NCBI GenBank assembly: GCA_965541585.1
Contig: CBEUCH010000008.1
Span: 32,001-96,000 of the forward strand
Length of the DNA stretch: 64,000 nt
Source: an uncultured bacterium
GTDB lineage: Bacteria > Zixibacteria > MSB-5A5 > UBA10806
Reading direction: 5' to 3'
In this document: positions 41,191-63,955 of the stretch, in pieces
Layout of the letters: every line of letters starts with the position of its first letter
Numbering within the stretch: the first letter of the stretch is position 1
Made by a program: the position numbers and the translations under genes
Notes under the pieces: model-generated
What the model saw: the letters and a program-made list of their open reading frames with translations, nothing else
What the model was told of the DNA's origin: nothing
The model's database searches: none

Positions 41191-41221
41191 GACATTTGAG
41201 AGGGTAGCGCGAGAAAAGGTT

Positions 41222-45785: not shown

Positions 45786-46681
45786 TTCAACAACACCATC
45801 ATCCTCGTCTCGGTATACTCACCCGCCTGAATCCTGTAGAAATACATGCCGGATGAACGGTCGCTGGCATCCCACACAACCTGATGATAGCCCGCTGGCT
45901 GTTCTCCTTGAACTATCGTTTCCACCCTGCGGCCGAGGATGTCGTAGATGTTGATTATAACGTGGGATGGTTCGGGCAAAGTGTAATTAATGATAGTGGA
46001 TGCGTTGAAAGGGTTGGGCTGGTTTTGAGCCAATGAAAAATCAGAGGGAATCATGGGAATAGGATCGATACTGATCTCCGGCTCAAAGTATAGCCCGCAG
46101 TAATCCTGCTCCGGCACGACGCTTCCGCCCGGCGGAGTTTCAAAAGACCAGGTAGTTCCCTGCCCGCTATGCGGATACCAGCCTATGGAAAACGGGTAGT
46201 ATGTATCATCTATAGGAACATCAGTATTGCAGGTCATACGAAATGAGCCGTAGTAATCCCATTCCCCCTGGGTATCTAACGGATCACCCTCAGGACCGAA
46301 AACTGTATATAAAGCCGCCTGCATTTCGCAGGTGTAGCCCGGAGGAATCGGGAAATCATCGTCAGGGTTGTAGATATATGGGCCATCGACCCAAACCGAC
46401 TCCCAGTTGGGCATATCGTAGTCGGGATCAATTTCTGCGCCGTTACGTAATACAATAACAGCGTCCTCAGACATCAGGCCATGTGCAAGACCGACAATGT
46501 AAGCTGAGTTACCGGGGTCAGTTCTTACCCACATCTCAATTTCTATATCCTCTCCATTGTGCACCGTCAAAACTCCGGCATTATCCCCCTCCAGTGGCCC
46601 GAAGACGATCTTGTTGGATTGGGCGGAGGCTATAGATGCTGCAAATAACGCAAACAACGATACAAACAATACTCTATTCAT
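45782..46681 (-). CDS. Secreted protein with C-terminal secretion (T9SS-like) domain
   Basis: Signal peptide; QNQPNPFNAST...IYDILGR...SSGMYFY...MVLLK. Confidence 0.8.
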   Translation of the reverse strand: MNRVLFVSLFALFAASIASAQSNKIVFGPLEGDNAGVLTVHNGEDIEIEMWVRTDPGNSAYIVGLAHGLMSEDAVIVLRNGAEIDPDYDMPNWESVWVDGPYIYNPDDDFPIPPGYTCEMQAALYTVFGPEGDPLDTQGEWDYYGSFRMTCNTDVPIDDTYYPFSIGWYPHSGQGTTWSFETPPGGSVVPEQDYCGLYFEPEISIDPIPMIPSDFSLAQNQPNPFNASTIINYTLPEPSHVIINIYDILGRRVETIVQGEQPAGYHQVVWDASDRSSGMYFYRIQAGEYTETRMMVLLK

Positions 46682-46699
46682 CGCATCCCCCTTAACATT

Positions 46700-48091
46700 T
46701 TATTTCAACAGAACCATTTTCTTCGTTTCAGCATATTCCCCCGCCTGTATTCTGTAGAAATACATGCCGGATGATTGATTGCTGGCATCCCAGGTGATCT
46801 GACGATAACCCGCCTGCTGATTTTCATTAATAAGCGTCTCCACCCTGCGGCCGAGGATGTCGTAGATGGTGATTATGACATCGGAGGGTTCGGGCAGGGT
46901 ATAGCGGATGAGGGTGGAAGCGTTGAAGGGGTTGGGATAGTTCTGGGATACGGAGAACCTATCAGGCGAGGGGATTTCGTCATAGTCGATTCCTACCAAG
47001 AGCGAATCACCGCCGCCATAAGCGCCCATATCGCTTCTTATGGCTCCCAGCCCCCAGGAGCAATTCAGAAGGCTGTCAAGAATATCAGGATGCCCCGCAT
47101 CGATGCAGGGAGAATCAAAAGAATCTCCGCAGGCGGTGGACATGAGATGGAAATCGCCGTTTTCAGGATCACGGAAGAGAGGGTCGGCATCGATGTTGCC
47201 CTCACCGGGCCAGCCGCCCTGGATGTTACAGTAAACAATCTCAGGCGGCAGCTCGATACGCAAGAATACCTCATCTGGCTCATTTTCATAGACAATAGAA
47301 TTTATAATAATAGAATTCGGACTCCAACAGTAAATCCCTCCGCCCTGCACAATAGAAATGTTCCGACTGATTGTATTGTTGGCAATTAGAATGTCATCAC
47401 CACATATAATCCCCGCACCTTCGGCAGCGTAATTTCCAACAATGCTATTATTAGCGATAATAACACTACCCCAGCCACATATTCCGCCACCATATCCAGA
47501 TGAATTGTTTATGATTCTATTACCTATGATTAAGCTGTTAGCACAATCGCAATAAATCCCACCCCCGAACGATACACCCCTTGCATGATTATCTCTGATG
47601 AGGTTATTCACTATTTTTGAACTTGATCCAGTGCACAAGATCCCTCCGCCTGCTGTGGTTAGACTGGATACGATATTATTCTGAATAATATTGTGTGAAA
47701 TTACAGGGCTGGATGACAAACAGATGATCCCTCCTCCGAAGGCGTAATCATAACCGTTCTGCAACGTGAATCCAGAAATAGCTGAGGTGCTATCCTCCCC
47801 GCTCTCAAAAGTAACTACTGACCCGGATTCATTACCATCGATAACCGTTTCCGCTATATACGTTGTATCCCCCGTCATTAAAAACAACGACCCCAGCACA
47901 ATATTGTGCCCGTTAAAATTGATATTCTCTACATACGTCCCCGGATGAACCAGAACGGTGTCGCCGTCATGGGAGACGTCTATGCCCTCCTGAATGGTCG
48001 GGTAATCATAGGGGATTTCGATGATGGTCGCCTGGACAGGTATATATGCAAACACAAGCAACGCTATAACGAAAATGTATGCTCTTTTCAC
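46700..48091 (-). CDS. Secreted parallel beta-helix protein with C-terminal secretion (T9SS-like) domain
   Basis: GTG start with GGAGG RBS; YPTIQEGID, GGGI.C repeats, QNYPNPFN tail. Confidence 0.82.
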   Translation of the reverse strand: MKRAYIFVIALLVFAYIPVQATIIEIPYDYPTIQEGIDVSHDGDTVLVHPGTYVENINFNGHNIVLGSLFLMTGDTTYIAETVIDGNESGSVVTFESGEDSTSAISGFTLQNGYDYAFGGGIICLSSSPVISHNIIQNNIVSSLTTAGGGILCTGSSSKIVNNLIRDNHARGVSFGGGIYCDCANSLIIGNRIINNSSGYGGGICGWGSVIIANNSIVGNYAAEGAGIICGDDILIANNTISRNISIVQGGGIYCWSPNSIIINSIVYENEPDEVFLRIELPPEIVYCNIQGGWPGEGNIDADPLFRDPENGDFHLMSTACGDSFDSPCIDAGHPDILDSLLNCSWGLGAIRSDMGAYGGGDSLLVGIDYDEIPSPDRFSVSQNYPNPFNASTLIRYTLPEPSDVIITIYDILGRRVETLINENQQAGYRQITWDASNQSSGMYFYRIQAGEYAETKKMVLLK

Positions 48092-48301: not shown

Positions 48302-48330
48302 TTGACACCTGCACGAATGTTCAGTATTTT
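48302..48330 (+). promoter_or_regulatory. Sigma70 promoter with a palindromic operator in the spacer, heading the helicase/phage-head module
   Basis: TTGACA-17 nt-TATTTT; CTGCAC-GAAT-GTTCAG at 48309-48324. Confidence 0.6.
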
Positions 48331-48438
48331 GGGGCCGGAAAGAAAGTAGAGGGAGGCTGGAACAACGCAGGCGATGGTTAACCTGTTATCATGTAACGTA
48401 TTATGATTATCGAGAATCTCAATATGAAGGGAGGCAAT

Positions 48439-48633
48439 ATGACCAGGAAAATGGAATACGACCTTTTCGCCGCACAAAAGCGATGCAATTGCGGCGGGGG
48501 TCTGATTTACGACGGACAGCTGATGGTCTGTGTCGGCTGCTACGATATTTTCTGCCCGAGCTGTTTTAACAGGGCCGTAACCGAGGGCGGATGTTTCGCC
48601 TGCGCGCTTTGCGGCTGGAGCGCATGCATATAG
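48439..48633 (+). CDS. Small Cys-rich zinc-finger protein
   Basis: GGAGG RBS; CNC, CVGC, CPSC, CFACALC in 64 aa. Confidence 0.65.
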   Translation: MTRKMEYDLFAAQKRCNCGGGLIYDGQLMVCVGCYDIFCPSCFNRAVTEGGCFACALCGWSACI

Positions 48634-48639
48634 GCAATT

Positions 48640-51183
48640 ATGAAGATCGAAAGGCTCCAGCGGTTCGGAATCCCGGAGCAGGTTATAAAACGGTGGTCTG
48701 CAGACGGCATACGATTCCTGCTGCCATTGCAGGCGGAATCGGTTAATCGCTATGCTCTTCTTGACGGCGAAAGCCTGATAATCAGCGGGCCGGGAACATC
48801 CGGTAAGACATTTTGCGGGGAGATGGCCACGCTGCACCAGGCGGCATCGAGAAAGAAAGCTATATTTCTAGTGCCGTTGAAGGCCATCGCGGAGGAAAAA
48901 TACCGGCTGTTTACGAAAAGATATTCGCCGCTGGGGCTTAAGATAAGGCTGGCCACAAGAGACCATGCGGAATACGGTCACGAAATCTCCAGGGCCGATT
49001 ATGATATCCTGATAACCATCTATGAGAAACTCAATTCATTGACTGCTACAGACGTCTCGATTATCAAAAACACCGGCTGTTTTATTCTCGATGAGTTTCA
49101 GCTGATATCCGATCCCGGCAGAGGGCCGGAGATCGAGATCGTGATTGCCAAGATAAGAGCTTTCAATCCCGACGCCCAGCTTGTCATACTGATGGGCGGA
49201 GGGTCGTCGCCTGAGAATATCTCCCGTTGGCTGGGATTGCCGGCGCTGGAAGAAACACGCCGTCCGGTGGATCTTCGGCTGGGAGTTTTACACAGAGGCA
49301 CCTTTCATTTTCGCGGTTTTAACGATCTGACCGAGGGCGATGAGCGCTGGCTGGAGGAGAGGCAGATCGATTACGACGGTCCCCTCGATGACCAGGGTGC
49401 GGCGGCCATCGAGATTCTCGCCGGGCGAGAAGAGCAGATAATCATTTTCACATCGACAAGGAAGAAGGCGACCGGGTTGGCATCGTATCTTGCCGAACGG
49501 TTGGATCTTCCGGCAGCCCGGGAATCCTTAAAGGGGATATCGGAACTGGCGCCATCCGTGCAGAATGAGCGTCTGGCGGAATGCCTGCGGAACGGTGTTG
49601 CGTTTCATCATGCCGAACTCAATAGCGAGCAAAGGCAGTTGGTCGAGGACGGGTTTCGCCGGGGGGAGATCAGGATTCTGTCGTCGACAACAACATTGGC
49701 CTCGGGCGTGAATCTTCCGGCAAAAAATGTGTTTGTAGAGACCATGAAATACGACGGTATCCGATCATCGAACTGCAGGGAAGCGCTGGTTCCGATTTCG
49801 GGAGTCGATTTTCAGCAGGCGGCGGGGCGCGCCGGACGGTTGGGAGTGGGGGATAAGTTCGGCCGGGCGGTGATGATTGCGGCTACTCCATATGAACATG
49901 AAGTTCTCTGGAATCAATATGTCTATGCCCAAAATGAGGATACGAAGTCCGGCCTGGCGAGAAGGCAGATGCCCGATCTGGCAATGCGCCTTATAGCCTC
50001 CGGTATAGCCTTTTCCTCAGATGAGGTAGTCTGCTCCATGGGAAATCTATTCGGGGTCTTCTGTTTGAACGAGAATAGCGGCATCTCAAATTCTGTGGGA
50101 TCCGCGATGGCTTATCTCGAAAAAGGGGGGCTTATTCAATTCGAGAAGGCGGGCAGTATCGTGCCAACCTCGCTGGGAATCATCGCTTGCTCGACAGGAT
50201 TCTCAGTGGGATCGATTATCAGGATCAATGAGACGCTCGATAGATGTATAATAAAAGAACCGTTAGAGTGGCTCTATTTCGCTTTCGGCCTGAGCGAATG
50301 GTCGAAGACAGGTGGATTTTATAATCCGAGAGGCGCATCAGATACTGTTTTGCTTCATCAGATCGATGAGTTAACCGAGGAGTTGTCTGTTCGGTCAGAG
50401 TATATTGCATCGCAGGTGAAATCTTATAAAGAGCGGTCGGTTGTGCGATCGTTATCATCGTTTCTGTTCGCGCTGGAGTGGGTCGCCGGCAGGCCGACTC
50501 GTGAAATGGAGATCGCCTTTAACAAGGGCAGCGGAGGACTCAAACGCGACGCACGGACATTATCCTGGATTCTGACAGCAATCGAAAAGGTCATTCGCAG
50601 TGAGGAATCGGCGTCCGAATCATATAATATGGTCGCCGGTGAACTGAATCAACTTGCTGCCAGAATGAGACATGGTGTCATCGCAGCGATGTTGCCTCTG
50701 GCGAGGATTCTCGATATCGACAGAGAATTTGTTCAGCGGCTTTATAACATGGGGATCAGGTCGGTGGATGATTTTCACGATATCGATTATTCGGTTCTAA
50801 AGGAGATGTTACCGCTAACCGTTGTTGAGAAAATCCAGAATCGTCTCAAGAACTATAATCAGCGAATATCATCGCCGGATAAGCTGACTCCCTCTCAGAA
50901 AAGGAGTGAAGTTTTATTCACCGGCAAAAACAGAAAGCTCTTGAGGGAAATAAATATCTGCGGCAAATCAATATTCTTACAGGCGAAATTATATTCTTAT
51001 ATGCAAAAACTCTGGTGGGGGAATCTGTCGGAAAATCCCTGGATACACAAAGAGAGCCTCGAACCGGGGATCAACCAGGCGAAATATGTAAGCAAGCTTA
51101 GAAGAATATTGAAAGAAAGCGGTATAAAGATAGAGATAGTTTCCAACGGCCGCGGATATTATCGCTTGGTTCTACATAGCTGA
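48640..51183 (+). CDS. Ski2/Hel308-like SF2 helicase with atypical motifs and C-terminal OmpR-like winged-helix domain
   Basis: GI..L.PLQ, GTSGKT, VPLKAIA.EK, DEFQ, RPVDL, GVAFHHA, TLASGVNLPA, QAAGRAGR, HhH (RLYNMGIRS), YVSKLRRIL...NGRGYYRL. Confidence 0.88.
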   Translation: MKIERLQRFGIPEQVIKRWSADGIRFLLPLQAESVNRYALLDGESLIISGPGTSGKTFCGEMATLHQAASRKKAIFLVPLKAIAEEKYRLFTKRYSPLGLKIRLATRDHAEYGHEISRADYDILITIYEKLNSLTATDVSIIKNTGCFILDEFQLISDPGRGPEIEIVIAKIRAFNPDAQLVILMGGGSSPENISRWLGLPALEETRRPVDLRLGVLHRGTFHFRGFNDLTEGDERWLEERQIDYDGPLDDQGAAAIEILAGREEQIIIFTSTRKKATGLASYLAERLDLPAARESLKGISELAPSVQNERLAECLRNGVAFHHAELNSEQRQLVEDGFRRGEIRILSSTTTLASGVNLPAKNVFVETMKYDGIRSSNCREALVPISGVDFQQAAGRAGRLGVGDKFGRAVMIAATPYEHEVLWNQYVYAQNEDTKSGLARRQMPDLAMRLIASGIAFSSDEVVCSMGNLFGVFCLNENSGISNSVGSAMAYLEKGGLIQFEKAGSIVPTSLGIIACSTGFSVGSIIRINETLDRCIIKEPLEWLYFAFGLSEWSKTGGFYNPRGASDTVLLHQIDELTEELSVRSEYIASQVKSYKERSVVRSLSSFLFALEWVAGRPTREMEIAFNKGSGGLKRDARTLSWILTAIEKVIRSEESASESYNMVAGELNQLAARMRHGVIAAMLPLARILDIDREFVQRLYNMGIRSVDDFHDIDYSVLKEMLPLTVVEKIQNRLKNYNQRISSPDKLTPSQKRSEVLFTGKNRKLLREINICGKSIFLQAKLYSYMQKLWWGNLSENPWIHKESLEPGINQAKYVSKLRRILKESGIKIEIVSNGRGYYRLVLHS

Positions 51184-51290
51184 GTCTATAGTCCCATTGC
51201 AATTCGCCGGTTTCCATGTCGGGAGCACAGATTTTCTATCCTTCAGGATGGAAGCTGCAGCGATATCCTGAGTGTATAACCTGTCCAACC

Positions 51291-51304
51291 TGCATTTGTT
51301 TTGC
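51291..51304 (+). promoter_or_regulatory. Repeated motif TGCATTTGTTTTGC upstream of the portal gene
   Basis: 13/14 identical to 54938-54951; both are followed by ATAATTGAAA. Confidence 0.5.
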
Positions 51305-51362
51305 TAAAGTCTTTTCCAATGGATAATTGAAATCAGCGAAAGCACCGCGCAAAGGAGCTCCG

Positions 51363-52649
51363 ATGTTCGGATTGCCGTTTCTAAAAAAAAGGGAAAATAG
51401 AAAGAAAAGCCCTCGCGCCGACCTGGCCCAGCGAGCGAAGATCATCAAGCCTCGCCGTCCCCGGCATAAGGCGGGAGCATCATTGAAGGATGACTATGCC
51501 CGGATCAGCTTCCCGGCCGATTACGGCTATTATGAGAGAATCACACTGTATCGATTCCTGCGGGAGCAGATTCCGGTGGTCAATGGCGCCATTTGGATCT
51601 GGGTACGCCTCTGCTCCAGCCCCATGGAATTTCACCCGTCCGCCAGCGACCGGGAGGCGGATATTACAAGACTGAATTCGGCCGTAGATGATCTCAACCT
51701 GCGCCTGGCGCCGAATCCCTATTATAAATCGGGCGGGCTGGAACGGCTCTCCGATCTTTTCTTCAGTTCATTATTTGTCGATGGGGCCTTTGCAGGCAAT
51801 ATCGAGGTCGGCAGCGACGGCCGGCTGATCGGCTTTTTGCCGGTCGACGTGCGAAAATTGACGTTCGAATACGACGATGGCTGGAAGATTTATCATGAAT
51901 CAGATGAGGGCAAGAGGCTCTTGGATCCGGCCAACTTCATCTATATACCGCTGGACGATGACTCCATCGATCCGCGCGGAAAAAGCATCCTCCAGTCCAT
52001 AGGCTTCGTCAGCCGTCTGGAACAGAAGCTTCTGGATGATATGCAGAAATCACAGGAGAAGGCGGGATATAACAGGCTTCACGTCCTGATCAACAAACCG
52101 GAACGCCGGATGGGCGAATCGGAGAACGATTTTCACGATCGCGCCAACAGCTATTTCGATGATACGGTTGGCCTTTTCTCCGGCATAAAGCCCTCGGATT
52201 CGGTAGTGACCTGGGATGATATCGAAATCAAGACTGTGGCGCCGTCTGGAGGGGCAACAGCGGCAACCCACTCGTGGTACCTGGCGCACCGGGCCGTTGT
52301 GGAGGATGTTTGCGCCGGCGTTCATCTCGATCCCTTTATGTTGGGATATTCATACGGCAGCACCAGGAGCTGGGCGCAATTCAAATTCGAACTGGTTTTA
52401 AGGCAGGTGATTTCCGTCCAGAAGCTGGCGGTTCGATTCTTCGAGTGGCTCGTTAATACGCATCTCACCCTGTCAGGAGTAAACCTGAAAGCCTCCGTCA
52501 ATTTCAATAACGACAGGATAGACGGCGCTCTCGAGAGATACCAATCGGAACATGAGGAGGCTCGCCGCGTGCTGGAATTATACGAGGCCGGATTGTTTTC
52601 CAAGGAGGAGGCCCGCTCCCGCGTTTTCCGAATCGAGGGGGATAATTGA
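51363..52649 (+). CDS. Phage portal protein (putative)
   Basis: AAGGAG RBS; about 430 aa; LYRFLRE..PVV.GAI, G.SIL, PFMLG features; position beside the terminase. Confidence 0.72.
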   Translation: MFGLPFLKKRENRKKSPRADLAQRAKIIKPRRPRHKAGASLKDDYARISFPADYGYYERITLYRFLREQIPVVNGAIWIWVRLCSSPMEFHPSASDREADITRLNSAVDDLNLRLAPNPYYKSGGLERLSDLFFSSLFVDGAFAGNIEVGSDGRLIGFLPVDVRKLTFEYDDGWKIYHESDEGKRLLDPANFIYIPLDDDSIDPRGKSILQSIGFVSRLEQKLLDDMQKSQEKAGYNRLHVLINKPERRMGESENDFHDRANSYFDDTVGLFSGIKPSDSVVTWDDIEIKTVAPSGGATAATHSWYLAHRAVVEDVCAGVHLDPFMLGYSYGSTRSWAQFKFELVLRQVISVQKLAVRFFEWLVNTHLTLSGVNLKASVNFNNDRIDGALERYQSEHEEARRVLELYEAGLFSKEEARSRVFRIEGDN

Positions 52650-52650
52650 T

Positions 52651-53136
52651 ATGGCCGGTGCCGACTGCACAATCTGCGAATCGCCGTTGCGAACAGAGAT
52701 CGAGAGCAAAGATACCGCCTGGAAGGCCGACAGGACCATTCAGTGGGCAAGAAAGCATGGCGTGCGAATAAGCAGGTTTTCACTGGCCAGGCATCGCACT
52801 AACCATTTAAATTCGACGAGAATTAGCGCAAAGAAAAAACCTCCGGATAAAATCGTCGAACCTCAGGCCAAAACGAAGCAAATAAAAAGTGATGCCTCCA
52901 TTAGCCCGAATCCCGTATCGGATCTGGAATTTCTCAATGCGGTACGCGACAGGGTTTATGAAAAATTAAAAGAAGGCGAATTCGACCTGAAGATCGAATC
53001 GGCGTTCAAGGCTATCGAGATTAAGAATAAGATATCCGACGAGTCTCAAAACGAAAAACTTCTATTAGAAATTCTGGCGGAGATCCGGACCGAGGAACTC
53101 GGCCGCCTCAAGCAGAGCCGGAGAGCTGCAATCTGA
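52651..53136 (+). CDS. Putative terminase small subunit (CxxC...H-x3-H plus HTH)
   Basis: CTICESPLR.EIE...ISRFSLARHRTNH, helical C-terminus, directly upstream of TerL. Confidence 0.55.
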   Translation: MAGADCTICESPLRTEIESKDTAWKADRTIQWARKHGVRISRFSLARHRTNHLNSTRISAKKKPPDKIVEPQAKTKQIKSDASISPNPVSDLEFLNAVRDRVYEKLKEGEFDLKIESAFKAIEIKNKISDESQNEKLLLEILAEIRTEELGRLKQSRRAAI

Positions 53137-53197: not shown

Positions 53198-54538
53198 ATG
53201 GTAAAAAGAGATCCGCTCGAATCCGGGCGAAGCTGGCGAAAAGCGGTAACGGACCCGGTCTATTTTGCCCGCGCTTTTCTGGATTTGAATCCTCATCCGG
53301 GACAGGCCAGGTGGCTTGAGAATTCGACGGGCTCGGAAAACGCGCTGGTAACGGGCAACCGCTGGGGTAAATCGCAAATACAGGCCGTTAAGCTTTTGCA
53401 TCGTGCCGTCTTTCAAATCAGGCCGATCGATCGCGATATCGACCGTTACTACCGTTGCGCTAACGTCTCCATCACCCAGGATCAGGCAAGCATAGTCTTT
53501 GCGAAGATGCTGGATCTGATAAACAGATCCGAGCCGCTGACTGCTCTTGTGAAAAATATCAGGCAGACTCCTTTCCCTCACATAGTCTTCAAAAACGGCT
53601 CGGAGATCTGGGCACGATCGACGCAGAACAGGGGGGAGTATATCCTGGGGCATGATTTCGACTATATCAATTTCGACGAAGCGGCCTATGAGCCGTTCGG
53701 GGATTGGGTAGTGGACGGCGTGATCAAGCTACGGTTGGCCGACAGGGATGGGACATTAGATCTTTCCTCGACGCCAAACGGTTTGAACTGGTTTTACAAG
53801 CGATGTGAACTCATCAAAAAGCAAATGCGCGGATTTGTGATGCGCGGCTCGACATTTGAAAATCCTCACCTGGCGAAGAATTATCTGGAGGATCTAAAAC
53901 GAGGTTTAACCGAGTCGAGGGTAGCACAGCATCTTCATGGCCGTTTCACCTCGTTCGAGGGGCGCCTTTTCCCGGACGATGTTATCAATCGCTGTTTAAT
54001 ATGCGATGCTCCCTCGTTGCGGGCGCCGAATCCGAAAGGTTTCTATATCCATGGATGGGATCTGGCCCGCAAGGTGACGTACACAGTGGGCATAACAATC
54101 GACGCCGGCTCACGTCCATTCAGGGTGATCGAAATAGCGCGGATGCAGAGGAAATGGCCGGTAACGATTAGTTCTATTAAGGAAAGGCATCGGAAATATG
54201 GCGGCGTAACGATTATCGATTCCACCGGTCTCGGGGATGTCGTCCTGGCGGAGTTGAACGATATCGGTGCGGTCGGCTTCAATTTCGGCGGCGGAAATCG
54301 TGATTTACTGCTGGCCAATCTCGAGCGGGCCATTTACGCCGGAGATGTCGTCTGGCCCCATATCGACCTGCCGGATGACGGAGGCTCGACCTGGAGTCTG
54401 ACAGATGAAATCAGAGCTATGGATAAATTATATAAGAACGTCGGTGATGGCGTTTGCGCGCTCGCGCTGGCGTTGTGGCAGGTCAGAGAACGTTCGGCCG
54501 AATCCCCGTTTTTGAAATCATCGGTTGGCAGGTTTTGA
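53198..54538 (+). CDS. Terminase large subunit
   Basis: Q motif, GNRWGKS (Walker A), NFDEAA (Walker B), STPNG, nuclease GWDLA, DSTGLG, D..CALALA. Confidence 0.92.
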   Translation: MVKRDPLESGRSWRKAVTDPVYFARAFLDLNPHPGQARWLENSTGSENALVTGNRWGKSQIQAVKLLHRAVFQIRPIDRDIDRYYRCANVSITQDQASIVFAKMLDLINRSEPLTALVKNIRQTPFPHIVFKNGSEIWARSTQNRGEYILGHDFDYINFDEAAYEPFGDWVVDGVIKLRLADRDGTLDLSSTPNGLNWFYKRCELIKKQMRGFVMRGSTFENPHLAKNYLEDLKRGLTESRVAQHLHGRFTSFEGRLFPDDVINRCLICDAPSLRAPNPKGFYIHGWDLARKVTYTVGITIDAGSRPFRVIEIARMQRKWPVTISSIKERHRKYGGVTIIDSTGLGDVVLAELNDIGAVGFNFGGGNRDLLLANLERAIYAGDVVWPHIDLPDDGGSTWSLTDEIRAMDKLYKNVGDGVCALALALWQVRERSAESPFLKSSVGRF

Positions 54539-54761: not shown

Positions 54762-54777
54762 TGCAATAAATATGCCG
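54762..54777 (-). promoter_or_regulatory. Sigma54-like -24/-12 promoter (minus strand)
   Basis: CGGCATATTTATTGCA: GG-N10-GC spacing with TTGCA. Confidence 0.5.
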
Positions 54778-54937
54778 CCGGGACCGAGTATAAACTGCCT
54801 CTGCAAAAACCGGAAAGCCAGTATCTTATAAGGCTTGTTCAACGTCTGAGCACCCCGCCCGATGTGAAATGCTCTGCAGTGTTTCCTATTTTCGGTAGCT
54901 CTCTGCATAGGGACAGGTTGCTGAAATTCGTTCAAAA

Positions 54938-54951
54938 TGCATTTGATTTGC
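54938..54951 (+). promoter_or_regulatory. Repeated motif TGCATTTGATTTGC upstream of the prohead protease gene
   Basis: Near-identical to 51291-51304. Confidence 0.5.
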
Positions 54952-54982: not shown

Positions 54983-55789
54983 TTGGAAGGACTAAGAGAA
55001 ATACTGATAGGAAACCTCTCGGTAAGCCATCCCGACGAACGAATTGACTTTCTGGTGGGTCAAATCAATAAGAATATCAATCCCCCTCGAAAAGCGATGC
55101 TGGATAATGTCAATATCAGGGTCATGTATCTGTTAAATGATCTGGTTAATTCGCATGGCGGACGATTCGGGCAGGCCGATCTGGCAAGCCTTGGCAAATT
55201 AATTGTCGACACCCCGGTTTTGATCGGCCACGACAGGTCATCGGCGCCACTGGCCAGAAATTTCCATACAGAACTGGAGCGCAAGGAAGAAACGCTCTGG
55301 CTAAAAAGCTATTTCTATTGGCCAAAATCAAATGACGGTGAGTCCGATCAATTGCTGGAAAAGATCGACTCCGGAATTCTCAAGGAATGCTCCATATCAT
55401 TTGTTTATACCACGCCGGAGTGTTCTGACTGTGGTCAGGACATCAGGAGTTGCCCTCATGAAGCGAACGGCAAAAACGGTACGCACTTTATCTATAAAGG
55501 CATAACCCAGGTGCTGGAAACCTCGCTGGTCTCAAAAGGATCTGTAAAAGGGACTTACGTAACGGATAAATTGTCAGCTCACTCAGTCAGGAGTGTAACC
55601 ATCGGCGGAGACGGCTATATAATGGAACTGCCGGTTGCGGATAGCATGATTCATCAACAGGGAGCGGCAGTGTTATCCATAGAATCGCATGGGTGCCCGA
55701 CGCCCGAAATTATCGCTCATTCACCCGATATTATTGCTGCGCTGGCAATAAAAAATGATCGAGTCCATCTTCTGGTCAAATCAGCCTGA
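54983..55789 (+). CDS. Prohead (capsid maturation) protease-like protein
   Basis: GAGGAGG RBS, TTG start; PVLIGHD, I.SGILKECSISF, CSDCG..CPH, ETSLV. Confidence 0.72.
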   Translation: MEGLREILIGNLSVSHPDERIDFLVGQINKNINPPRKAMLDNVNIRVMYLLNDLVNSHGGRFGQADLASLGKLIVDTPVLIGHDRSSAPLARNFHTELERKEETLWLKSYFYWPKSNDGESDQLLEKIDSGILKECSISFVYTTPECSDCGQDIRSCPHEANGKNGTHFIYKGITQVLETSLVSKGSVKGTYVTDKLSAHSVRSVTIGGDGYIMELPVADSMIHQQGAAVLSIESHGCPTPEIIAHSPDIIAALAIKNDRVHLLVKSA

Positions 55790-56434: not shown

Positions 56435-56857
56435 ATGAGTGTAAGAGAACAAAACTTGCAGACCGTTGGCTTTATGACGGCCACGTTCAAAATCCATCAG
56501 ACCGCCAGCGAGGATGATTTAAAAGACGCGGATATCGGCAAGGCGGTCGCCATGACGGGCAATTACGAGGTCGGTCCTGGTTCCGATGGCGATGTGTTGA
56601 TCGGTAAACTGATACATCTATCGTTGACCGATGCAGACGTCGGGAAGAGGGTGGCTACCGTCCAGATCGGCGGAATCTGCACGCTGGCCGCGGCCGCCAC
56701 GGTGCCGTCCGTAGGAGATCGTGTAGTGGTTGACGGTAGCGGCGCAGTGAGACAGGCCCCGGCGCTGGCAACCGATGACCCGGCCGGGGGGAACGTGGCG
56801 CGCGGAACTGTCATCGATGTCAACGGCACCTCGGAAGTAACATTAATTCTTGGATAA
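56435..56857 (+). CDS. Head decoration/cement-like protein
   Basis: 140-aa Gly/Ala/Val-rich beta protein (GKAV, ATVQ.GG, DG.G.V) directly upstream of the capsid gene. Confidence 0.6.
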   Translation: MSVREQNLQTVGFMTATFKIHQTASEDDLKDADIGKAVAMTGNYEVGPGSDGDVLIGKLIHLSLTDADVGKRVATVQIGGICTLAAAATVPSVGDRVVVDGSGAVRQAPALATDDPAGGNVARGTVIDVNGTSEVTLILG

Positions 56858-56876
56858 GAATCAACAGGGAGAAAAG

Positions 56877-57986
56877 ATGGAAATAGAAAAATTGATGTCA
56901 TCAGATCTCGAAAGCTCGCTTGTGGATGCGATCGAGAACGAGAAGGGCTCGACCGGATCAGTCGATTTCGCAAAGGCCCGGAAGATAGACGTTGACCGCG
57001 ATACATATCTCGAAGCGCAGGCCAAGGGAATGTCTCTAACCGAACTGCTGGAGCAGACGGAATACGATCCGAGTCCCTCCGGTTCATTACTGGATGCTTT
57101 CGAGAGACAACTGGCGTTGAAGGGAATTCGTACTGGGGGCAAAAGTCCGGTAACGGTTGAGATGTTCTATCGAGGCGCACCGGCCCTTATGCCGGAATTC
57201 ATGCAGAGGGAGATCCTGCGGGGGATGAATATGCGTCCCGAACTGGCGAAACTGCTGGCCTCCAGCTCCGGCGTATCCACGTCACGCTACTCACCCATAA
57301 ATATTGACCACTCCGCCACCGATCCCGAAATGTCGCTACGGCCGGTAGGCGAGGGCGCCGTGATACCATCCGTCAATGTCACCGAGCAAAACAACACCAT
57401 AACGATTCCGGATTATGGTCTGACCCTGAAGGTAACCTACAAAGCTCTACGACACCGGAGTATGGCGCAGTTTAAAGTGTTGCTATGGTATATAGGATAT
57501 CGTCTGCAATCGGATAAAGTCGCTCTGGTCGTGGATACAATCATCAACGGCGATGGCAATTCTAATCCGGCGACGGTAATAAACACCGATATTACCAGCA
57601 CTCTCGATTACGACGATCTCATTAAATTCTGGAACGAATTCTATCCTTACCAGCCGAACGTTCTGATCTGCCATAAAGATAAAGTCAGATCGATACTGAC
57701 CCTGGCGGAATTCAAAGATCCCCTGGTCGGCTTCAGTTTCCAGACCAATGGGGAAATTACATCGCCCCTGGGCGCAACGTTGATACGCTGTGATGAAGTC
57801 CCCGCCGATTACGTCATCGGCCTCGATAACCGTTTTGCAATTGAAGAGGTGATCGGCCAGCCCCTGATGGTGGAATACGATAAAATCATCGAGCAGAAGA
57901 TCGAGGAGGCTGTGATATCCGAATCGGTGGCGTACGCAAAAGTCGTGAAGGAATCATCGCTGATACTCGATTCCGAGTGGACTTAA
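56877..57986 (+). CDS. Major capsid protein (HK97-like, putative)
   Basis: About 370 aa; LDAFERQL, ALMPEF, VGEGA.IP, YG..L..TY.A, INGDGN, D.R.A.E features; canonical position. Confidence 0.82.
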   Translation: MEIEKLMSSDLESSLVDAIENEKGSTGSVDFAKARKIDVDRDTYLEAQAKGMSLTELLEQTEYDPSPSGSLLDAFERQLALKGIRTGGKSPVTVEMFYRGAPALMPEFMQREILRGMNMRPELAKLLASSSGVSTSRYSPINIDHSATDPEMSLRPVGEGAVIPSVNVTEQNNTITIPDYGLTLKVTYKALRHRSMAQFKVLLWYIGYRLQSDKVALVVDTIINGDGNSNPATVINTDITSTLDYDDLIKFWNEFYPYQPNVLICHKDKVRSILTLAEFKDPLVGFSFQTNGEITSPLGATLIRCDEVPADYVIGLDNRFAIEEVIGQPLMVEYDKIIEQKIEEAVISESVAYAKVVKESSLILDSEWT

Positions 57987-58008: not shown

Positions 58009-59454
58009 ATGCACAAACTGATAGCCACATCGGCGGCGAACCGGCCCACCGGGTCGCCGCCCCAGAGAAAACTGTTTCGGGTGCCGTCCGGGATATTCAA
58101 GAGAAGGCTGGCGGCTCTATACATGGACTCTGCGGCCGGTATATCGCTTTCGTACTCGGATCACCCGCATCAATCCTGGTCGTCGCCACAGCAGATAATA
58201 ACCGATTCGCTTGACTCACCTTTCAGCGTCAGCATGGATGGATCAGGTAACATATATATAGTCTATAGCGATAGTTCGAAGGATATTAAATTCGTCAAGC
58301 TGACGTTTGCCGCAGGCGCCTGGTCGGCCGGGTCCGCTGTTACGGTCCTGGATGTGGATGATAATTACAATCCCTTTATTCTAAAAGACGGCGACGGCAA
58401 GCTCTGGTGCTTCATTGTAAACCATCGAACTTCGGTCGACTCGAAATACTACGTGCGCTCGAAATTTTCAGACGATGACGGCCAGACATGGGGAACGGGT
58501 GGCAGCGATCTCGGGACGCAGCTTTCGTCGGGATCGGACGATATCTGTTACGTATCGGCCTGCCAGATATCATCGCGGCTTTACACCGTTTATGCCGACG
58601 AGCGATCGAATCTCAAATACCGCGTCTATGACCTGAAACTGGAGTCCTGGGAAAGCGAAAATGCAATCCATACGGGAGATTATATAGATGACGATTTCGA
58701 TATCGCCGTGAGTCCCGATAAGAAACTTGGCGTTGCCTTTTCAATCAGTTCCGATAGCAGGATCTATTTCAAAGAGTTCGATGGTAATTCCTGGAGCGGT
58801 TTACAGGAGGTCGAAGATGTACAGTCAAGATCCCCCCAAATCTCCTATTTGAATGAAATTCCGCATATATTCTATGCTGGATTCCTGGGCAGCAATTACT
58901 ACAGGCTTCGCCATGCGCTAAAATCCGGGGATTCATTCCTCCCTGCCGACTATGCTCCCTCCATAGGAACATTCGATAAAGTTTTGGTTTACGATGATTC
59001 GGCGAGCACTAAATTCGAGGATAAGACAACTGCCGCAGCAGATTCCTCGTCCGGCGATGTGTATCATTCTGAATCATCGGCCTTGTTGAATGGTATAGGC
59101 GATTGCCTCTATGTCGGGAATAAAGACAAGTTCTACTGCGCTACTATTATACTCTCTGTCGCAGGTGCCGGAGGCCAGGTGGTCTGGGAGTATTTCAACG
59201 GAGCTCAATGGATCGCCTTCACTCCGGACAGCGGTGCTTATCATTTCGATTCGGCTGACAAGCTGGTTTATCTGTGGGCCGACGGCGAGTCATTGCCATC
59301 GGACTGGCAAATCGGGGCGATCAACAACTACAACGCATACTGGGTAAGAGCCCGCGTTTCAGTCGGTTTCTCGTCGAACCCGGTCGGCACACAGATCATG
59401 GCAGCGCCCGCGTGCGACGATCTGGCGCTGGTTCGTAACGGCCTCGGGGGATAG
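58009..59454 (+). CDS. Beta-propeller (BNR/Asp-box) structural-type protein
   Basis: SDDDGQTW Asp-box, repeated W-ended blades, C-terminal WEYFNG..W...YWVR domain. Confidence 0.55.
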   Translation: MHKLIATSAANRPTGSPPQRKLFRVPSGIFKRRLAALYMDSAAGISLSYSDHPHQSWSSPQQIITDSLDSPFSVSMDGSGNIYIVYSDSSKDIKFVKLTFAAGAWSAGSAVTVLDVDDNYNPFILKDGDGKLWCFIVNHRTSVDSKYYVRSKFSDDDGQTWGTGGSDLGTQLSSGSDDICYVSACQISSRLYTVYADERSNLKYRVYDLKLESWESENAIHTGDYIDDDFDIAVSPDKKLGVAFSISSDSRIYFKEFDGNSWSGLQEVEDVQSRSPQISYLNEIPHIFYAGFLGSNYYRLRHALKSGDSFLPADYAPSIGTFDKVLVYDDSASTKFEDKTTAAADSSSGDVYHSESSALLNGIGDCLYVGNKDKFYCATIILSVAGAGGQVVWEYFNGAQWIAFTPDSGAYHFDSADKLVYLWADGESLPSDWQIGAINNYNAYWVRARVSVGFSSNPVGTQIMAAPACDDLALVRNGLGG

Positions 59455-59464
59455 GGGAGAGATC

Positions 59465-59836
59465 ATGAACGTTACTCTGGACTACCTGAAATCTAACCGT
59501 AAATGGTTTATCCGCGATTATCGTGTCTGGGGCGATGACGGCGCCCTCGAAGCCGATATGCTGATGACGGAAACAACGCCCTCAACGTCGAGAATAGTCT
59601 TCCTGCATCAGTTCTCCGGTGGCAACGGACAGGTTGTGGATTTTGCGGATCTTCTGGATCATCGCGGCAATAAACTGCCGCTGACCATAAACAATGCAGA
59701 AGTTATTATCATCCCGAAGAATGCGGTCGCCGCCTTCGTTCCTGGCACGGTCGGCCCGACATCTTTTCGAATTGCCAAATCTAATCGGCAACTTGCGGAT
59801 GCAGTCGTCGACCTTTTGATAATGGAGATGAGCTGA
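59465..59836 (+). CDS. Hypothetical protein of the phage-like module
   Basis: GGAG RBS, ORF coupled to the downstream gene. Confidence 0.55.
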   Translation: MNVTLDYLKSNRKWFIRDYRVWGDDGALEADMLMTETTPSTSRIVFLHQFSGGNGQVVDFADLLDHRGNKLPLTINNAEVIIIPKNAVAAFVPGTVGPTSFRIAKSNRQLADAVVDLLIMEMS

Positions 59837-60660
59837 TGTCATTTACGACGAAAGATCTCGTTAAAAAACATATCCTGGATCACCATCTCGGCTCGACCCT
59901 CATGGAAAATGAACCGCTCCAGTTAACCGGTAATGATGCCGTGTCCCTGCAGAGGAGAATGATCCTGAAAGGCTCGGAAAAGGTAAAGGGAAAAGAGCAA
60001 CTGGAGCCGGTTCAGGAAACTGTGAGCTTCGCAGGCTCCGATACATTCAGCCTGTCACATTCGGAACTGATTCCCGATACCGTGGTTGTCGCAGGGGATA
60101 GCTCTTTGGGAACCATTTATCTGGAAAATGTTGATTACCATATAGACTACGACAACGGAGAAATCAGAAGAATCAGCTCCGGATCTCTTGCCGCCGGCGC
60201 CAGCGTGGTGATCTGGTATCTCCACTTTAGAATCTATCAGCGGGGAGTGGATTACGATATCGATTACCAGAAGGGCACTATACGAAGGCGCTCATCAGGG
60301 GACGTTGAGTCCGGGCAGCGGGTCCTGGTGGACTATACGGCGGAGTACGGAGGTCTTGACGATGAGGCCATTGATAATGCTATCACGGAGGCCCATGAGC
60401 AGGTGCTGTCGTATATCGATGAGACCTACCGCGATTCCGCCGACCGTTCGCTGGTTTCCGCGGAGACCTATCTCACGGTTTCTATTATATGCCGTATCCG
60501 GGCCATGGAGGCCGTATCTCCATCGAGGGGCAGCGCCAACAACGCCACCGAGGCTAAATCCTGGTCCGCATTGTCTGACACATACAAGAAGGAGGCATAT
60601 ATTATCCTCTCGAGATTCACCGGTATCGTTGGTTCATTCAAGTCGCCATCGAAAGCTTAA
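59836..60660 (+). CDS. Head-tail connector-like protein with inserted repeats
   Basis: N-terminal FTT.DLVK and helical C-terminal AI.EA...V..Y...AE.YL; two internal DY.IDY..G.IRR repeats. Confidence 0.45.
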   Translation: MSFTTKDLVKKHILDHHLGSTLMENEPLQLTGNDAVSLQRRMILKGSEKVKGKEQLEPVQETVSFAGSDTFSLSHSELIPDTVVVAGDSSLGTIYLENVDYHIDYDNGEIRRISSGSLAAGASVVIWYLHFRIYQRGVDYDIDYQKGTIRRRSSGDVESGQRVLVDYTAEYGGLDDEAIDNAITEAHEQVLSYIDETYRDSADRSLVSAETYLTVSIICRIRAMEAVSPSRGSANNATEAKSWSALSDTYKKEAYIILSRFTGIVGSFKSPSKA

Positions 60661-60701
60661 ATTCAGGGTTCTCATATCCAGGGATAAGCGGAGAAATTAA
60701 A

Positions 60702-61799
60702 ATGGGCAGAATCATTTTAGCCACGCTGAAAGCGTGGCTTATAGTCCCGCTTATAGCGGGACTGGCCTCGTCTGCGTGGGGGGATACATTTGGCTTTTCG
60801 ACCCAGGGTGCTGCCAGTATCGGCGTAAATCAAACGTGGTGTTACAGTAACAGATACCCACCGGATGTTTACGGTGTTTCGGGCGGCGAGATATTAACCG
60901 AGTTGTGGGTGTTTATAGATCCGCCAGCTGCCAACTACACCAGTAAAATGGGCGTATATAAGTGGTCGGCATCCGATTCATGTGTTACCGACAGTATAGT
61001 GACATCCGGCAGCGTCAGCAATCCGTCGGCGGGTGCCGGTTGGATGCGGTATGATATTGCAGATAAGGTATTGACGGCTAACGATACCATATCGATAGTG
61101 GTCGGAAATTTCCAGACGGGAACGTGGTATATATACGAAACGGCTACTACCGATGCCGCAGAAGAGCATACGGCCGGCGATCTGCCGGCTTCGCTGAGCT
61201 GCGACAGCCGGGACGATTGGCGACTCTCCATGTTCGGGTGCATTAACCAGGAAGGTGGGGGTGGTGCTCTGGGGCATAGTCCTGACACATTCAGCCTCGG
61301 CACCAATTGGACTAATCCTGACAACGGCAGGATAGATGATAATTCCTGTGCCACATATAATAATACCGGGCAGGATTATGTCTGTTACCACGATTTCGAT
61401 TTTTCCATTCCATCAGGCGTAACTATTGACAGCTTTGATGTAACCGTGCAAGTTCGTGGCTCTGCCCTGCCTGCGGCAAAACGGGAATATCGTATCGGCT
61501 TGACAAAAGATTCGACAAATGTATATGGAACCGCCAGGCTGGACACTGCCAACAATGCGGGAGCCTGTAGTGACGCAAGCAACCAGACGAATAGTGGCGA
61601 TCTGTTCGGCGGTGCGTCATGGTCGGGATCAGATATAAACGGTCGGGGATTCGGGGTTATCCTCTATGACGATGATGAACAATCAGACGCATTGGATTTT
61701 GATGCCGTCTGGGTGACGGTTTATTTTACGCCCGCAGCGGTAGGGGGGGTGACTCCATCTCCAAGACGAAAAATGATCTCTAAGGTATTCGGGGGATAA
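60702..61799 (+). CDS. Secreted beta-rich protein
   Basis: Sec-type signal peptide ending ASSAWG; FSIPSG.TI motif; Ser/Thr/Asp-rich. Confidence 0.6.
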   Translation: MGRIILATLKAWLIVPLIAGLASSAWGDTFGFSTQGAASIGVNQTWCYSNRYPPDVYGVSGGEILTELWVFIDPPAANYTSKMGVYKWSASDSCVTDSIVTSGSVSNPSAGAGWMRYDIADKVLTANDTISIVVGNFQTGTWYIYETATTDAAEEHTAGDLPASLSCDSRDDWRLSMFGCINQEGGGGALGHSPDTFSLGTNWTNPDNGRIDDNSCATYNNTGQDYVCYHDFDFSIPSGVTIDSFDVTVQVRGSALPAAKREYRIGLTKDSTNVYGTARLDTANNAGACSDASNQTNSGDLFGGASWSGSDINGRGFGVILYDDDEQSDALDFDAVWVTVYFTPAAVGGVTPSPRRKMISKVFGG

Positions 61800-61803
61800 T
61801 AAA

Positions 61804-63540
61804 ATGAAAAAGGTATTTACAATACTATATGTTCTCATCCTTGCCGCCGGGGTTATGGCAATATCGGTAAGGCCAACCGATCAGGTTACAGTAGCTTCCC
61901 GGACGATTTACAATGATGGCAATCTTGCACAGCCCGATTCGGTCAGGATACAGGTATTTCGCAATGGCACGGAGCTTTCTGACGCATGGTATAATACGGG
62001 CGATGCAGAGTGCTCCGCTATTGATAGTTGGTTGATATTCACCGATCAGTTGCAGGATATAGATGGTGCAGGGGGACAGGGACACTATATCATAATGGGT
62101 CGGGCATACGATGAGGATTCAACTCTCTATACGCCCTGGGTATATAATTTCGATGTCGGTATGTGGACAGCCGTTGATCTTATAGAAGATACCCTGCAAT
62201 CACAGGATGGGTGGGTAGCCAGAGAAGCTACGGTTCAGATCATTAATGACAGTTTGGATAGTCAGGATGGATGGGTTGCCCGGAATCAATATGTGGACAC
62301 CGAGGTGCAGGAGATCTTGGACACGCTGAAGACATATGACGACGCCGGTCGCTTTCAGACAGATGCGCAGGAAATCCTCGATACTTTACAGAGCCAGGAT
62401 ACCTGGGTGGCGAAGGAGGCGACCGTAAACGGCCTGAACGACTTTGATCCCCTGTCGGATTCCGTGATGGTCGATATGTCTGTTCTCGATTCGAGCCTGA
62501 TGGGCAGCACTGCCGGGCGGGCATTGCTGTCATTAGCGCCCCATTTCGGGTGGGTGTCTTCTCAGATCAGCACCGGTCAATTCAAAATCGGCGGGCCGAT
62601 GACCGCATACAGCGATGATTTTTTCAATGATCTTCAATTGATTTTCATTGACGGGAATCTGCCCGGCAGGGCATCGAAAGTGACTGATTGGAGCGGTTCG
62701 GATTCGACCATAACGGTCAACCCGTTCTCATCACAGCCCGCCGTATATGACACGTTTGTAGTCGCTCCCAATCTGGATATCTCGGCTTCGGCAGATCTCC
62801 CCGATTCCGTTTCGGCAAGAATAGACTCGATTTTTGCCTCCGTTGGGACATTTTCGGATACCTCGATTACCGCTAAACTGGGGAGTTACTCCGGTGCCGC
62901 CGGGGATAATAACAATGTCAAGGACGACATAGCCGCAATATCCACACAGGGGGGAGGTACGGAAGCTGAAACGCTACTCGTTTTCGATAGTGATTCGACG
63001 GCCATCGAGGGCGTATCCGTCACGGTTCGCAACCTCGACCAGACATCCACAAAAGTGCCCGGTCACCGCACCGACTCCTCCGGCAAACTATACCTCGAGC
63101 TCGATCCCGACAGTTTCGTGGTGGCGCTTTATGCAAACAACTATATCCAGCCGGACCTCGATACAATCGTGGTGTCGACCGGCGGGGGCACAGATACGCT
63201 CTGGATGAACCTGTTCGATCCCGGCAATCCACCATCGCCTGATCTCTGCAGGGTTTATGGCTGGGTATACGATATCACCGGCGATTCGCTCGAAGGCGTG
63301 ACGATAACTTCAGAGATTCCACCGGATTTCCATCCCGTCAAGTACTCGAATGTCATAATTACGCCCTTTAAGAAGACCACGAAGACAGATTCCACCGGCT
63401 ATTGGCAAATCGATCTATTCCCAAATTCGGTCCTGTCCGATGAGGATTCCAGGTACGCCTTTATAATCGAATATCCATCCGGTGTAGTTTTCAAAGCCCG
63501 GGTCGAGGTACCGGATTCGACCAGTTGGCAATTGAAATAA
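61804..63540 (+). CDS. Secreted fibre-like protein with internal repeats and C-terminal prealbumin/carboxypeptidase-regulatory-like domains
   Basis: Signal peptide MKKVFTILYVLILAAGVMA; DTLQSQD.WVA repeats; EGV.V/IT...TDS.G domains twice. Confidence 0.6.
   Translation: MKKVFTILYVLILAAGVMAISVRPTDQVTVASRTIYNDGNLAQPDSVRIQVFRNGTELSDAWYNTGDAECSAIDSWLIFTDQLQDIDGAGGQGHYIIMGRAYDEDSTLYTPWVYNFDVGMWTAVDLIEDTLQSQDGWVAREATVQIINDSLDSQDGWVARNQYVDTEVQEILDTLKTYDDAGRFQTDAQEILDTLQSQDTWVAKEATVNGLNDFDPLSDSVMVDMSVLDSSLMGSTAGRALLSLAPHFGWVSSQISTGQFKIGGPMTAYSDDFFNDLQLIFIDGNLPGRASKVTDWSGSDSTITVNPFSSQPAVYDTFVVAPNLDISASADLPDSVSARIDSIFASVGTFSDTSITAKLGSYSGAAGDNNNVKDDIAAISTQGGGTEAETLLVFDSDSTAIEGVSVTVRNLDQTSTKVPGHRTDSSGKLYLELDPDSFVVALYANNYIQPDLDTIVVSTGGGTDTLWMNLFDPGNPPSPDLCRVYGWVYDITGDSLEGVTITSEIPPDFHPVKYSNVIITPFKKTTKTDSTGYWQIDLFPNSVLSDEDSRYAFIIEYPSGVVFKARVEVPDSTSWQLK
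62180..62430 (+). repeat. Degenerate internal coding repeats
   Basis: DTLQSQDGWVAREATV, DSLDSQDGWVA, QEILDTLK, QEILDTLQSQDTWVAKEATV. Confidence 0.7.
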
Positions 63541-63568
63541 ATACAATAAATCTGTGGAGGAAATTAAG

Positions 63569-63955
63569 ATGTTTATCGAACCTGTCTCAATTCATCACGT
63601 CTCGGCCGGCCTGTTTTCATGGGTAGGGGACATCCTGAGCGAAAGATCGCTGGCGGCGGTCGGTACGATTCTGATGATTTACCTGGGATATCTGATAAAA
63701 AAAGAAATAGTCCCGTTATTGAAAGTCAAACGCAATAAAGAGATTGCGGGCTACATACTTGTGATTGCCGACGATGTTACCGATTATTTCCGGCTGAAGT
63801 TTCCGTCGGCGCACTGGTCGGTATGGCTTGACCGGGCGGTTGACAAAATTATCGATGTTACCGGCGTCGGGAAAAATGCGGCAGAACGTGCCGCCAGAGC
63901 AGCGGTAGCAAGGAAAAAAGAAATAAAGGATCAGAATGAAGAAGGTCGAAGCTGA
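63569..63955 (+). CDS. Holin-like membrane protein
   Basis: GGAGG RBS; single N-terminal TM, amphipathic helices, AAVA then a basic C-terminus. Confidence 0.45.
   Translation: MFIEPVSIHHVSAGLFSWVGDILSERSLAAVGTILMIYLGYLIKKEIVPLLKVKRNKEIAGYILVIADDVTDYFRLKFPSAHWSVWLDRAVDKIIDVTGVGKNAAERAARAAVARKKEIKDQNEEGRS

Follow-up and report, generated by a model that had tools for sequence, protein, structure and literature searches.

A Hel308-like helicase fused to an OmpR-type winged helix behind a likely LexA operator: a candidate damage-induced activator of phage-head genes in Zixibacteria

The stretch of DNA examined here, referred to as the window, spans 64,000 nucleotides of contig CBEUCH010000008.1 (assembly GCA_965541585.1, positions 32,001 to 96,000) from an uncultured bacterium of the phylum Zixibacteria. 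It carries a gene for a helicase fused to a DNA-binding domain, followed by genes for a phage-type head, all on the forward strand. The helicase gene is preceded by a sigma70-type promoter, TTGACA-17-TATTTT (48302..48330), which was located by scanning and whose layout recurs upstream of orthologues, and the spacer of this promoter contains a predicted LexA operator, TGCAC-N4-GTTCA (48310..48323; score 18.3 with a matrix trained on lexA sites). The first open reading frame (ORF) of the operon encodes a small Cys-rich zinc ribbon of 76 residues (48403..48633, likely start 48439) and is co-transcribed with the helicase gene (48640..51183), whose product combines, according to profile and fold searches, a Hel308-like superfamily 2 (SF2) helicase (residues 1-745) with an OmpR/PhoB-type winged helix (residues ~756-845). 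The original prediction, made from the sequence alone, had read this protein as a Hel308/Ski2-like helicase with rewired motifs and an OmpR-type C terminus, placed first in the capsid module as its candidate controller.

Downstream of the helicase gene, a candidate activator site found as a de novo motif, GTNCA-N3-TGCATT(T), lies at the -35 position (51283..51302) upstream of the portal gene (51327..52649, likely start 51363; phrog_3753, E = 1e-25). Next come an ORF in the position of a small terminase, which may have that function (52552..53136; phrog_1007, a family of unknown function, E = 3e-5), and the large terminase gene (53198..54538; phrog_2, E = 2e-26, and Terminase_6N). A second copy of the promoter motif (54930..54949), the best match in the genome and a member of the motif's training set, precedes the gene for a prohead-protease-like protein (54983..55789; phrog_16951, E = 4e-13, and a weak TIGR01543 match), which is followed by those for a head decoration protein (56435..56857; phrog_4588 and phrog_122) and the major capsid protein (56850..57986; phrog_3922, E = 1e-64, and Phage_capsid_4). 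Helicase and head-module genes are each present once in the host genome. The module is chromosomal, single-copy and lineage-wide and keeps intact head genes without integrase or replication genes, as expected of the head module of a gene transfer agent (GTA). No tail tube, sheath or tape measure was recognised among the module genes, and reading within and beyond the window revealed no integrase, replication or tail genes.

The helicase portion of the 847-residue protein resembles known Hel308 proteins. The NCBIfam profile PRK02362 (Hel308/Ski2-like) aligns to residues 1-747 with E = 2e-109, under its cut-off; the equivalog cut-offs are missed both by this profile (367 versus 887 bits) and by NF040935 (234 versus 1200 bits). 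The AlphaFold model, with a predicted local distance difference test (pLDDT) score of 87, contains the five-domain Ski2-like fold (two RecA domains, winged helix, ratchet and helix-hairpin-helix) and matches solved Hel308/Hjm structures with template-modelling (TM) scores of 0.85-0.90 over the target. Profile and fold thus bear out the assignment as a Hel308/Ski2-like helicase. The Q motif, motifs Ia, IV, V and VI, the Walker lysine and the acidic DE pair are kept, as in archaeal Hel308/Hjm (PDB 2p6r, 2zj8, 2va8).

The last ~95 residues gave no match in Pfam or PDB sequence searches, and a protein atlas search with this domain returned leads only, all under 0.9. In contrast to the sequence searches, both fold searches of its model (pLDDT 90) rank OmpR/PhoB DNA-binding domains first. 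Foldseek retrieves SaeR and AdeR at TM ~0.6 with a weak E value of 0.015, and a wide structural search retrieves AdeR/BaeR with Z = 10.5 and a root-mean-square deviation of 2.2-2.5 over 82-84 residues. The modelled architecture, a four-strand sheet, three helices and a C-terminal beta-hairpin wing, also fits OmpR/PhoB. Moreover, two distant homologues (P0079 and P0112) exceed the cut-off of Pfam Trans_reg_C (PF00486), with E values of 9e-11 and 5e-9, although none of the 30 Zixibacteria C-terminal domains matches it. The proposed OmpR-type winged helix is therefore confirmed by its fold, even though Pfam is silent on the window's own domain. The same domain was recognised by a hidden Markov model in 39 of the 57 closed homologue ORFs outside Zixibacteria, and the models indicate that the fusion is real and family-wide. 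A family scan found no match to a receiver domain in the protein, and its N terminus is helicase.

The motifs quoted in the original prediction are present, namely GPGTSGKT, DEFQ, LMGGG and the C-terminal YVSKLRRIL...IVSNGRGYYRL, but they do not define the family. At the corresponding places, the solved Hel308/Hjm proteins have PTASGKT or PTAAGKT, DEIH and LSAT. The motif I variant, DEFQ and the glycine-rich motif III occur in the window and in 9 of 43 genome loci, whereas the other 34 have APTS(S/A)GKT with mostly DELQ and LSAV, which is near-canonical. These 43 loci are titled Zixibacteria, uncultured bacterium or uncultured Ignavibacteria, and all were counted as the host's phylum because the helicase gene is found throughout that phylum. 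Neither the DExH nor the S-A-T motif of Hel308 is present: the window protein has DEFQ and MGG, and most orthologues have DELQ and SAV. The whole family shares the change from H to Q in motif II; motif III has disappeared throughout the host's order (families f1 and f2), and motif I is altered in f1 and kept in f2. The domain-5 RAR motif of Hel308 is not kept in the window protein either. The "rewiring" is, by this sequence comparison, lineage-specific drift and not a family hallmark.

Compared with six proteins of the same family from other genera, the window protein is 59-68% and 56-65% identical in the two RecA folds, 46-63% in the C-terminal domain and 22-45% in the middle domains, a profile that covers f1 proteins alone. 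Because the host's order has lost the coupling to unwinding (motif III), with the highest conservation remaining in the ATP-binding folds and the winged helix, its helicase likely acts as a sensor rather than as a processive motor.

Evidence on the input of the system comes from the operon promoter. The arrangement TTGACA-nn-TGCAC-N4-GTKCA-GTATAT is found upstream of the zinc-ribbon/helicase operon in many families, with the palindrome overlapping the promoter, and the same palindrome lies upstream of the host lexA and recA genes. A 14-bp matrix was built from 18 sites in 30 lexA upstream regions, selected by pattern and a position window, with one match dropped by hand. At a score of at least 12, this matrix matches 39 of 43 helicase upstream regions, as opposed to none of 35 portal, 37 protease, 37 decoration and 36 terminase regions. 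In the 3.5-Mb host genome, the helicase promoter has the top score among 39 such matches, followed by dinB-like, mrfA-like, lexA and recA genes (dinB and priA were named by reading translations). The operator presumably resembles the LexA box of Fibrobacter. Taken together, these comparisons indicate that the helicase gene likely lies behind a LexA (SOS) operator, and the absence of the box from head-gene regions implies that the head genes, if damage-induced, need an intermediate. The third-best LexA-type box of the genome (41163-41176) also lies in the window, at a gene for an MrfA/SftH-type helicase with an MZB domain (41162-43495, forward strand), whose true start is probably downstream of the box.

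The output side was examined in the 24 genomes of the host's order, where a de novo search recovered GTNCA-N3-TGCATT in ~42 of 45 regions preceding the portal and protease genes, with an information content of 15.6 versus 7.8 for shuffled sequences. The motifs at 51291 and 54938, singled out earlier as sites to be assayed, turned out to be the core of this shared motif. Three regions were omitted from the order's matrix, and in a genome scan the 54930 site ranks best and the 51283 site second-best, both being in the training set. No other convincing promoter with the motif was found in the host genome, the next matches lying in hpr, before a doubtful ORF and in a sigma gene. The motif occupies the place where a -35 element should be, and because an AT-rich hexamer follows at -10 spacing with no TTGACA, the layout fits an activator-dependent promoter. 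Both sets of the order also show self-similarity with an 11-bp period, peaking at lag 11 (z = +2.7 and +3.2); compared with sets drawn from 1261 host upstream regions, the p values are 0.009 and 0.002, which kinship overstates. In other orders, lag 11 reaches +3.6 in protease regions and +1.8 in portal regions, where it is tied with lag 12. The signal is flat in four controls, the decoration, terminase, helicase and lexA upstream regions.

Homologues outside the phylum offer a second view of the same architecture. At E ≤ 1e-60, 1555 helicase homologues were found among 7997 scored proteins, with labels including Deltaproteobacteria, Planctomycetota, Fimbriimonadaceae and Polyangia. The locus sample comprised 54 long matches from 80 metagenome loci and 5 loci of a viral collection, and of these 59, 57 yielded closed ORFs. 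Genes found beside the helicase are a LexA-like repressor in 11 loci, a serine recombinase in 10 and, downstream, a sigma-like ORF in 10, among others, and a recurring cassette consists of recombinase, LexA-like repressor, helicase fusion, Com-like zinc ribbon, sigma-like ORF and replication genes. Directly 3' of 13 cassette helicases lie 11-bp tandem repeats, for example GTCA-N7-GTCA in three copies, with a lag-11 z of +10.3 and a next-best lag of +2.7. In these integrative elements the fusion thus lies behind a LexA-like repressor and in front of arrays that have the geometry of OmpR boxes. These arrays keep to the promoter of the zinc-ribbon/sigma operon despite intervening genes or altered order (L185, L425).

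The LexA-like repressor was considered as the binder of the arrays and rejected. The promoter of the repressor gene carries another palindrome, CTAAC-N4-GTTAG, which was spotted by eye in 5 loci, and 9 of 10 repressor regions contain no GTCA-N7-GTCA; the exception is L425, whose divergent region takes in the array. For L198, L252 and L265, the gene starts used were probably wrong. As the repressor thus has its own, palindromic operator, some other protein is needed to bind the repeats. In one locus (L196:6921-7931, reverse strand), a WYL/PafC-like regulator, recognised by reading, is divergent from the helicase fusion and replaces the repressor.

A low-GC group has a different cassette, with a DnaD-like gene, a split sigma, DUF1659, DUF2922, a holin and an M15 peptidase. 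Four of its elements (L228, L231, L235 and L242) carry the fusion, long perfect 11-bp arrays and a lysis cassette, with the M15 peptidase in L228 and no head genes nearby, and their recognition helices change fast. L228 and L232 share an 89% identical core, but only 8 of 13 helix and 5 of 11 repeat positions are alike; L228 and L239 share a 68% identical core, yet 13 of 13 and 10 of 11 are alike. In these pairs the repeat tracks the recognition helix and not the core. A search for sigma-like elements without the helicase yielded one usable contig, which ends at the repressor. Searches of annotated phages and plasmids gave no full-length fusion, and no head genes were seen near the homologous elements.

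Across 151 sampled Zixibacteria genomes, the helicase was found in 143, the capsid in 145 and the terminase in 144, almost always once each. In 26 of the 142 genomes having both helicase and head genes, from 8 families, the helicase lies within 30 kb of capsid or terminase, versus ~2.6 expected by chance, and gene order and orientation vary among these 26. The statement that the helicase is placed first in the module holds only in the host's order. Of the eight genomes first scored without helicase, four hold C-terminal fragments, one (G120) a C-terminal-domain frame and three nothing. In G120 (C73:16241-16615, L419), a 223-codon frame keeps the C-terminal part with the winged helix, preceded by a LexA-type box, and the helicase core, capsid, terminase, portal and BNR gene were not found in this draft. 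Judged solely from identity falling with kinship, the helicase appears to descend vertically in Zixibacteria.

We propose that the Hel308-OmpR fusion is a damage-induced transcription activator that switches on the phage-head genes of Zixibacteria, a reading to which we assign a probability of about 0.55. In the first step, damage would activate RecA, LexA would be cleaved and the zinc-ribbon/helicase operon derepressed, the operator being assigned by sequence comparison. In the second, the helicase domains would engage ATP together with a product of the damage, for example a stalled fork or a single-stranded 3' tail, and thereby license or oligomerise the protein, as the Hel308 fold suggests. 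In the third, which is modelled on PhoP/PhoB, the winged helices would dock on tandem sites at -35 in the portal and protease promoters, bringing in sigma70 polymerase. Finally, heads would be assembled and DNA packed into them, giving a predicted virus-like particle that belongs to the host and works like a gene transfer agent. Such a two-step damage switch is, on balance, probably the simplest account of the operator, the promoter motif and the mobile elements. Control of the capsid module, as originally predicted, gains independent support from the LexA-type operator, the -35 motif of portal and protease and the 11-bp arrays, although the protein is best described as a candidate activator.

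Several observations weigh against this proposal. The expected co-occurrence of the fusion with the capsid cluster holds at the level of genomes, but the helicase is on a different contig from the head genes in 107 of 142, and in nine genomes of four families it lies 186 kb to 1.95 Mb away on the same contig. Three draft genomes (G021, G112 and G117) have head genes and no helicase that we could find. Conversely, G024 (98% complete) keeps an intact LexA-boxed helicase, and searches of this draft for capsid, terminase, portal and BNR gene found none. On the promoter side, the order's matrix matches none of 30 portal and 29 protease regions in other orders, whose own de novo motifs are weak (information content 8.5 versus 7.4 and 11.2 versus 8.8). 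The lag-11 signal of Zixibacteria is modest, it comes from related genomes that do not count as independent, and the portal site of the window itself reaches only 9/22 in the repeat score. Among homologues, three loci follow recA, like ordinary SOS genes, many have no adjacent array (17 of 49 long homologues reach at least 14/22), and helix and repeat similarity are uncorrelated over all 45 low-GC pairs (Spearman 0.11, Mantel p = 0.21).

Some of these points would be expected of a conventional helicase for repair or fork restart, induced by SOS and comparable to archaeal Hel308, in which the winged helix aids loading onto DNA and the association with head genes is an accidental relic of ancestral gene order. 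The top LexA-box score beside dinB-like, mrfA-like and recA genes, the canonical ATPase motifs in 34 of 43 orthologues, the unlinked positions in four families, the survival without head genes in G024 and the homologues placed directly after recA all suit this explanation. We nevertheless regard it as unlikely: the added domain has the fold of sequence-specific OmpR proteins, homologues hold regulator positions in integrative elements with 11-bp arrays, G120 keeps the LexA box and the C-terminal domain where no helicase core was found, and a whole order has lost motif III while the gene persists.

Alternatively, the protein could process DNA for the particle: after damage, its winged helix would hold the helicase at specific sites, and the motor would make or clear packaging substrate, in the form of free ends or unwound forks, on which the terminase could act. 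Near-universal co-occurrence with terminase favours such a role, as do G021 and G112, in which helicase, terminase and portal are missing together and the capsid is kept, and arrays before replication genes could be origin-like. However, the arrays stay with the zinc-ribbon/sigma operon promoter in L185 and L425, the homologous elements show no head genes nearby and motif III is lost in the host's order, and we therefore consider this role quite improbable. Least probable of all is a damage-induced transcription factor with other targets, in which case something else, perhaps an alternative sigma factor or the product of the small-terminase-position ORF, would recognise the portal/protease motif; the motif can indeed be read as an imperfect 29-bp inverted repeat, atypical of OmpR geometry, and the helicase survives without head genes in G024 and as a winged-helix-only form in G120, but no other convincing promoter in the host genome carries the motif and the sigma-like genes of the elements have no homologue found in the host.

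The damage-induced activator proposed here resembles several known systems in part. Relative to archaeal Hel308/Hjm, it is bacterial, has DExQ in place of DExH and a motif III that is not kept, and adds an OmpR-type domain and a LexA-type operator. With OmpR/PhoB regulators (PhoP, AdeR, SaeR) it shares the C-terminal winged-helix fold and candidate 11-bp direct-repeat sites at -35, whereas it lacks a receiver domain or kinase and has an SF2 helicase as its input module. According to PMC11825685 and PMC4832192, PhoP dimers bind tandem direct repeats and displace the -35 contact. A parallel in wiring, from repressor to dedicated activator to chromosomal head cluster, is the Caulobacter GTA (PMC9632790), where the LexA-like repressor RogA, which lacks autoprotease residues, holds down the activator GafYZ that turns on the chromosomal head cluster. 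However, the proteins are unrelated, the operator here is the host lexA/recA box, no tail genes were recognised and the particles are predicted. DriD and other WYL activators, as PMC12041258 and PMC12340889 describe them, are one-component proteins that join a nucleic-acid-sensing domain to a winged helix and act in DNA damage; the sensor of DriD is a WYL domain and not a helicase, DriD is SOS-independent and the proteins are unrelated. A further likeness, in the Ski2-like core, is to Hachiman HamB, which PADLOC matches to the helicase core with E = 2e-37, partially, over residues 40-402. No HamA-like partner was seen next to the helicase, whose neighbours are the zinc ribbon and the portal, and the locus does not have the gene pair of a Hachiman system. 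HamB has a damage-sensing role and is not known to carry an OmpR domain.

The surroundings of the fusion and of the head genes show further recurring features. Small Cys-rich ORFs directly upstream of the helicase form two clusters of 10 and 9 loci, although in one member of the larger cluster (L034) the ORF is 413 nt away; the window's zinc ribbon has no match in family scans. ORFs related to the one in the small-terminase position occur in 21 module loci. Downstream of the capsid gene, the accessory genes (58009..63955) encode a BNR-repeat protein of 481 residues, proteins of 123, 274, 365 and 578 residues and a 133-residue membrane protein. They are conserved and syntenic across families and have no clear PDB or family match, and the BNR-repeat and 274-residue genes could not be named. 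The nearest capsid relatives in the viral collection (L101-L111, 32-35% identity) belong to tailed elements whose portal and protease fall into the same families. Elsewhere in the host genome lies a distinct locus for contractile injection (L418, G000:C22:11102-36999), with sheath, tube, AAA ATPase and baseplate-like genes. In eight loci (L029, L030, L032, L035, L036, L039, L041 and L043), a Lon protease gene lies immediately 3' of the helicase gene, and it could limit the activator's lifetime. Secreted proteins with C-terminal domains of the type IX secretion system type recur around and within the module on the opposite strand, at 43647-48091 (reverse strand) in the window and between module genes in L002, L004 and L008.

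A sigma54-type site upstream of the protease gene in 28 of 37 loci was also considered as a control element of the module. It was dropped because its direction is opposite to that of the head genes and because, in many relatives, a divergent gene for a secreted protein follows it, the two tested being PEP-CTERM proteins. The window has an exact site of this type at 54763-54776 (reverse strand), facing the end of the terminase gene, the sole one of 25 intergenic exact sigma54 sites in the genome without a same-strand gene ahead. As relatives have a divergent PEP-CTERM gene there, the site is probably either an orphan or the promoter of a small RNA.

In open-access full text, supplements excluded, we found no paper joining Zixibacteria with gene transfer agents or with terminase and capsid, none on Hel308 with an OmpR winged helix or Trans_reg_C, and none on a Ski2-like helicase with LexA and prophage; a domain-architecture listing in a supplementary table could have escaped this search. 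The open-access papers found on Zixibacteria prophages include none on a helicase regulator by title. New here are the lexA-type operator of the helicase promoter, the order-wide portal/protease motif and the mobile-element fusion with its 11-bp arrays. More tentatively, and at somewhat less than even odds, all of this can be joined in one picture. The fusion would represent a new class of one-component transcription factor, with a Hel308 sensor and an OmpR output, that serves mobile elements as the second stage of an SOS switch. Zixibacteria would have acquired one along with a prophage, placed it under the host LexA and kept it phylum-wide as master activator of a tail-less GTA, made only when damage is both signalled through LexA and physically sensed by the helicase.

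If the proposal is true, the head genes of Zixibacteria have a testable trigger, DNA damage acting through LexA, and a named activator with named sites, and particle induction by mitomycin C or by expression of a single gene is predicted in an uncultured phylum. The findings also point to a widespread, unannotated family of regulators that is filed under "DEAD/DEAH box helicase" and may control the excision and replication of many integrative elements. More broadly, they suggest that the sensory part of a transcription factor can be an SF2 helicase.

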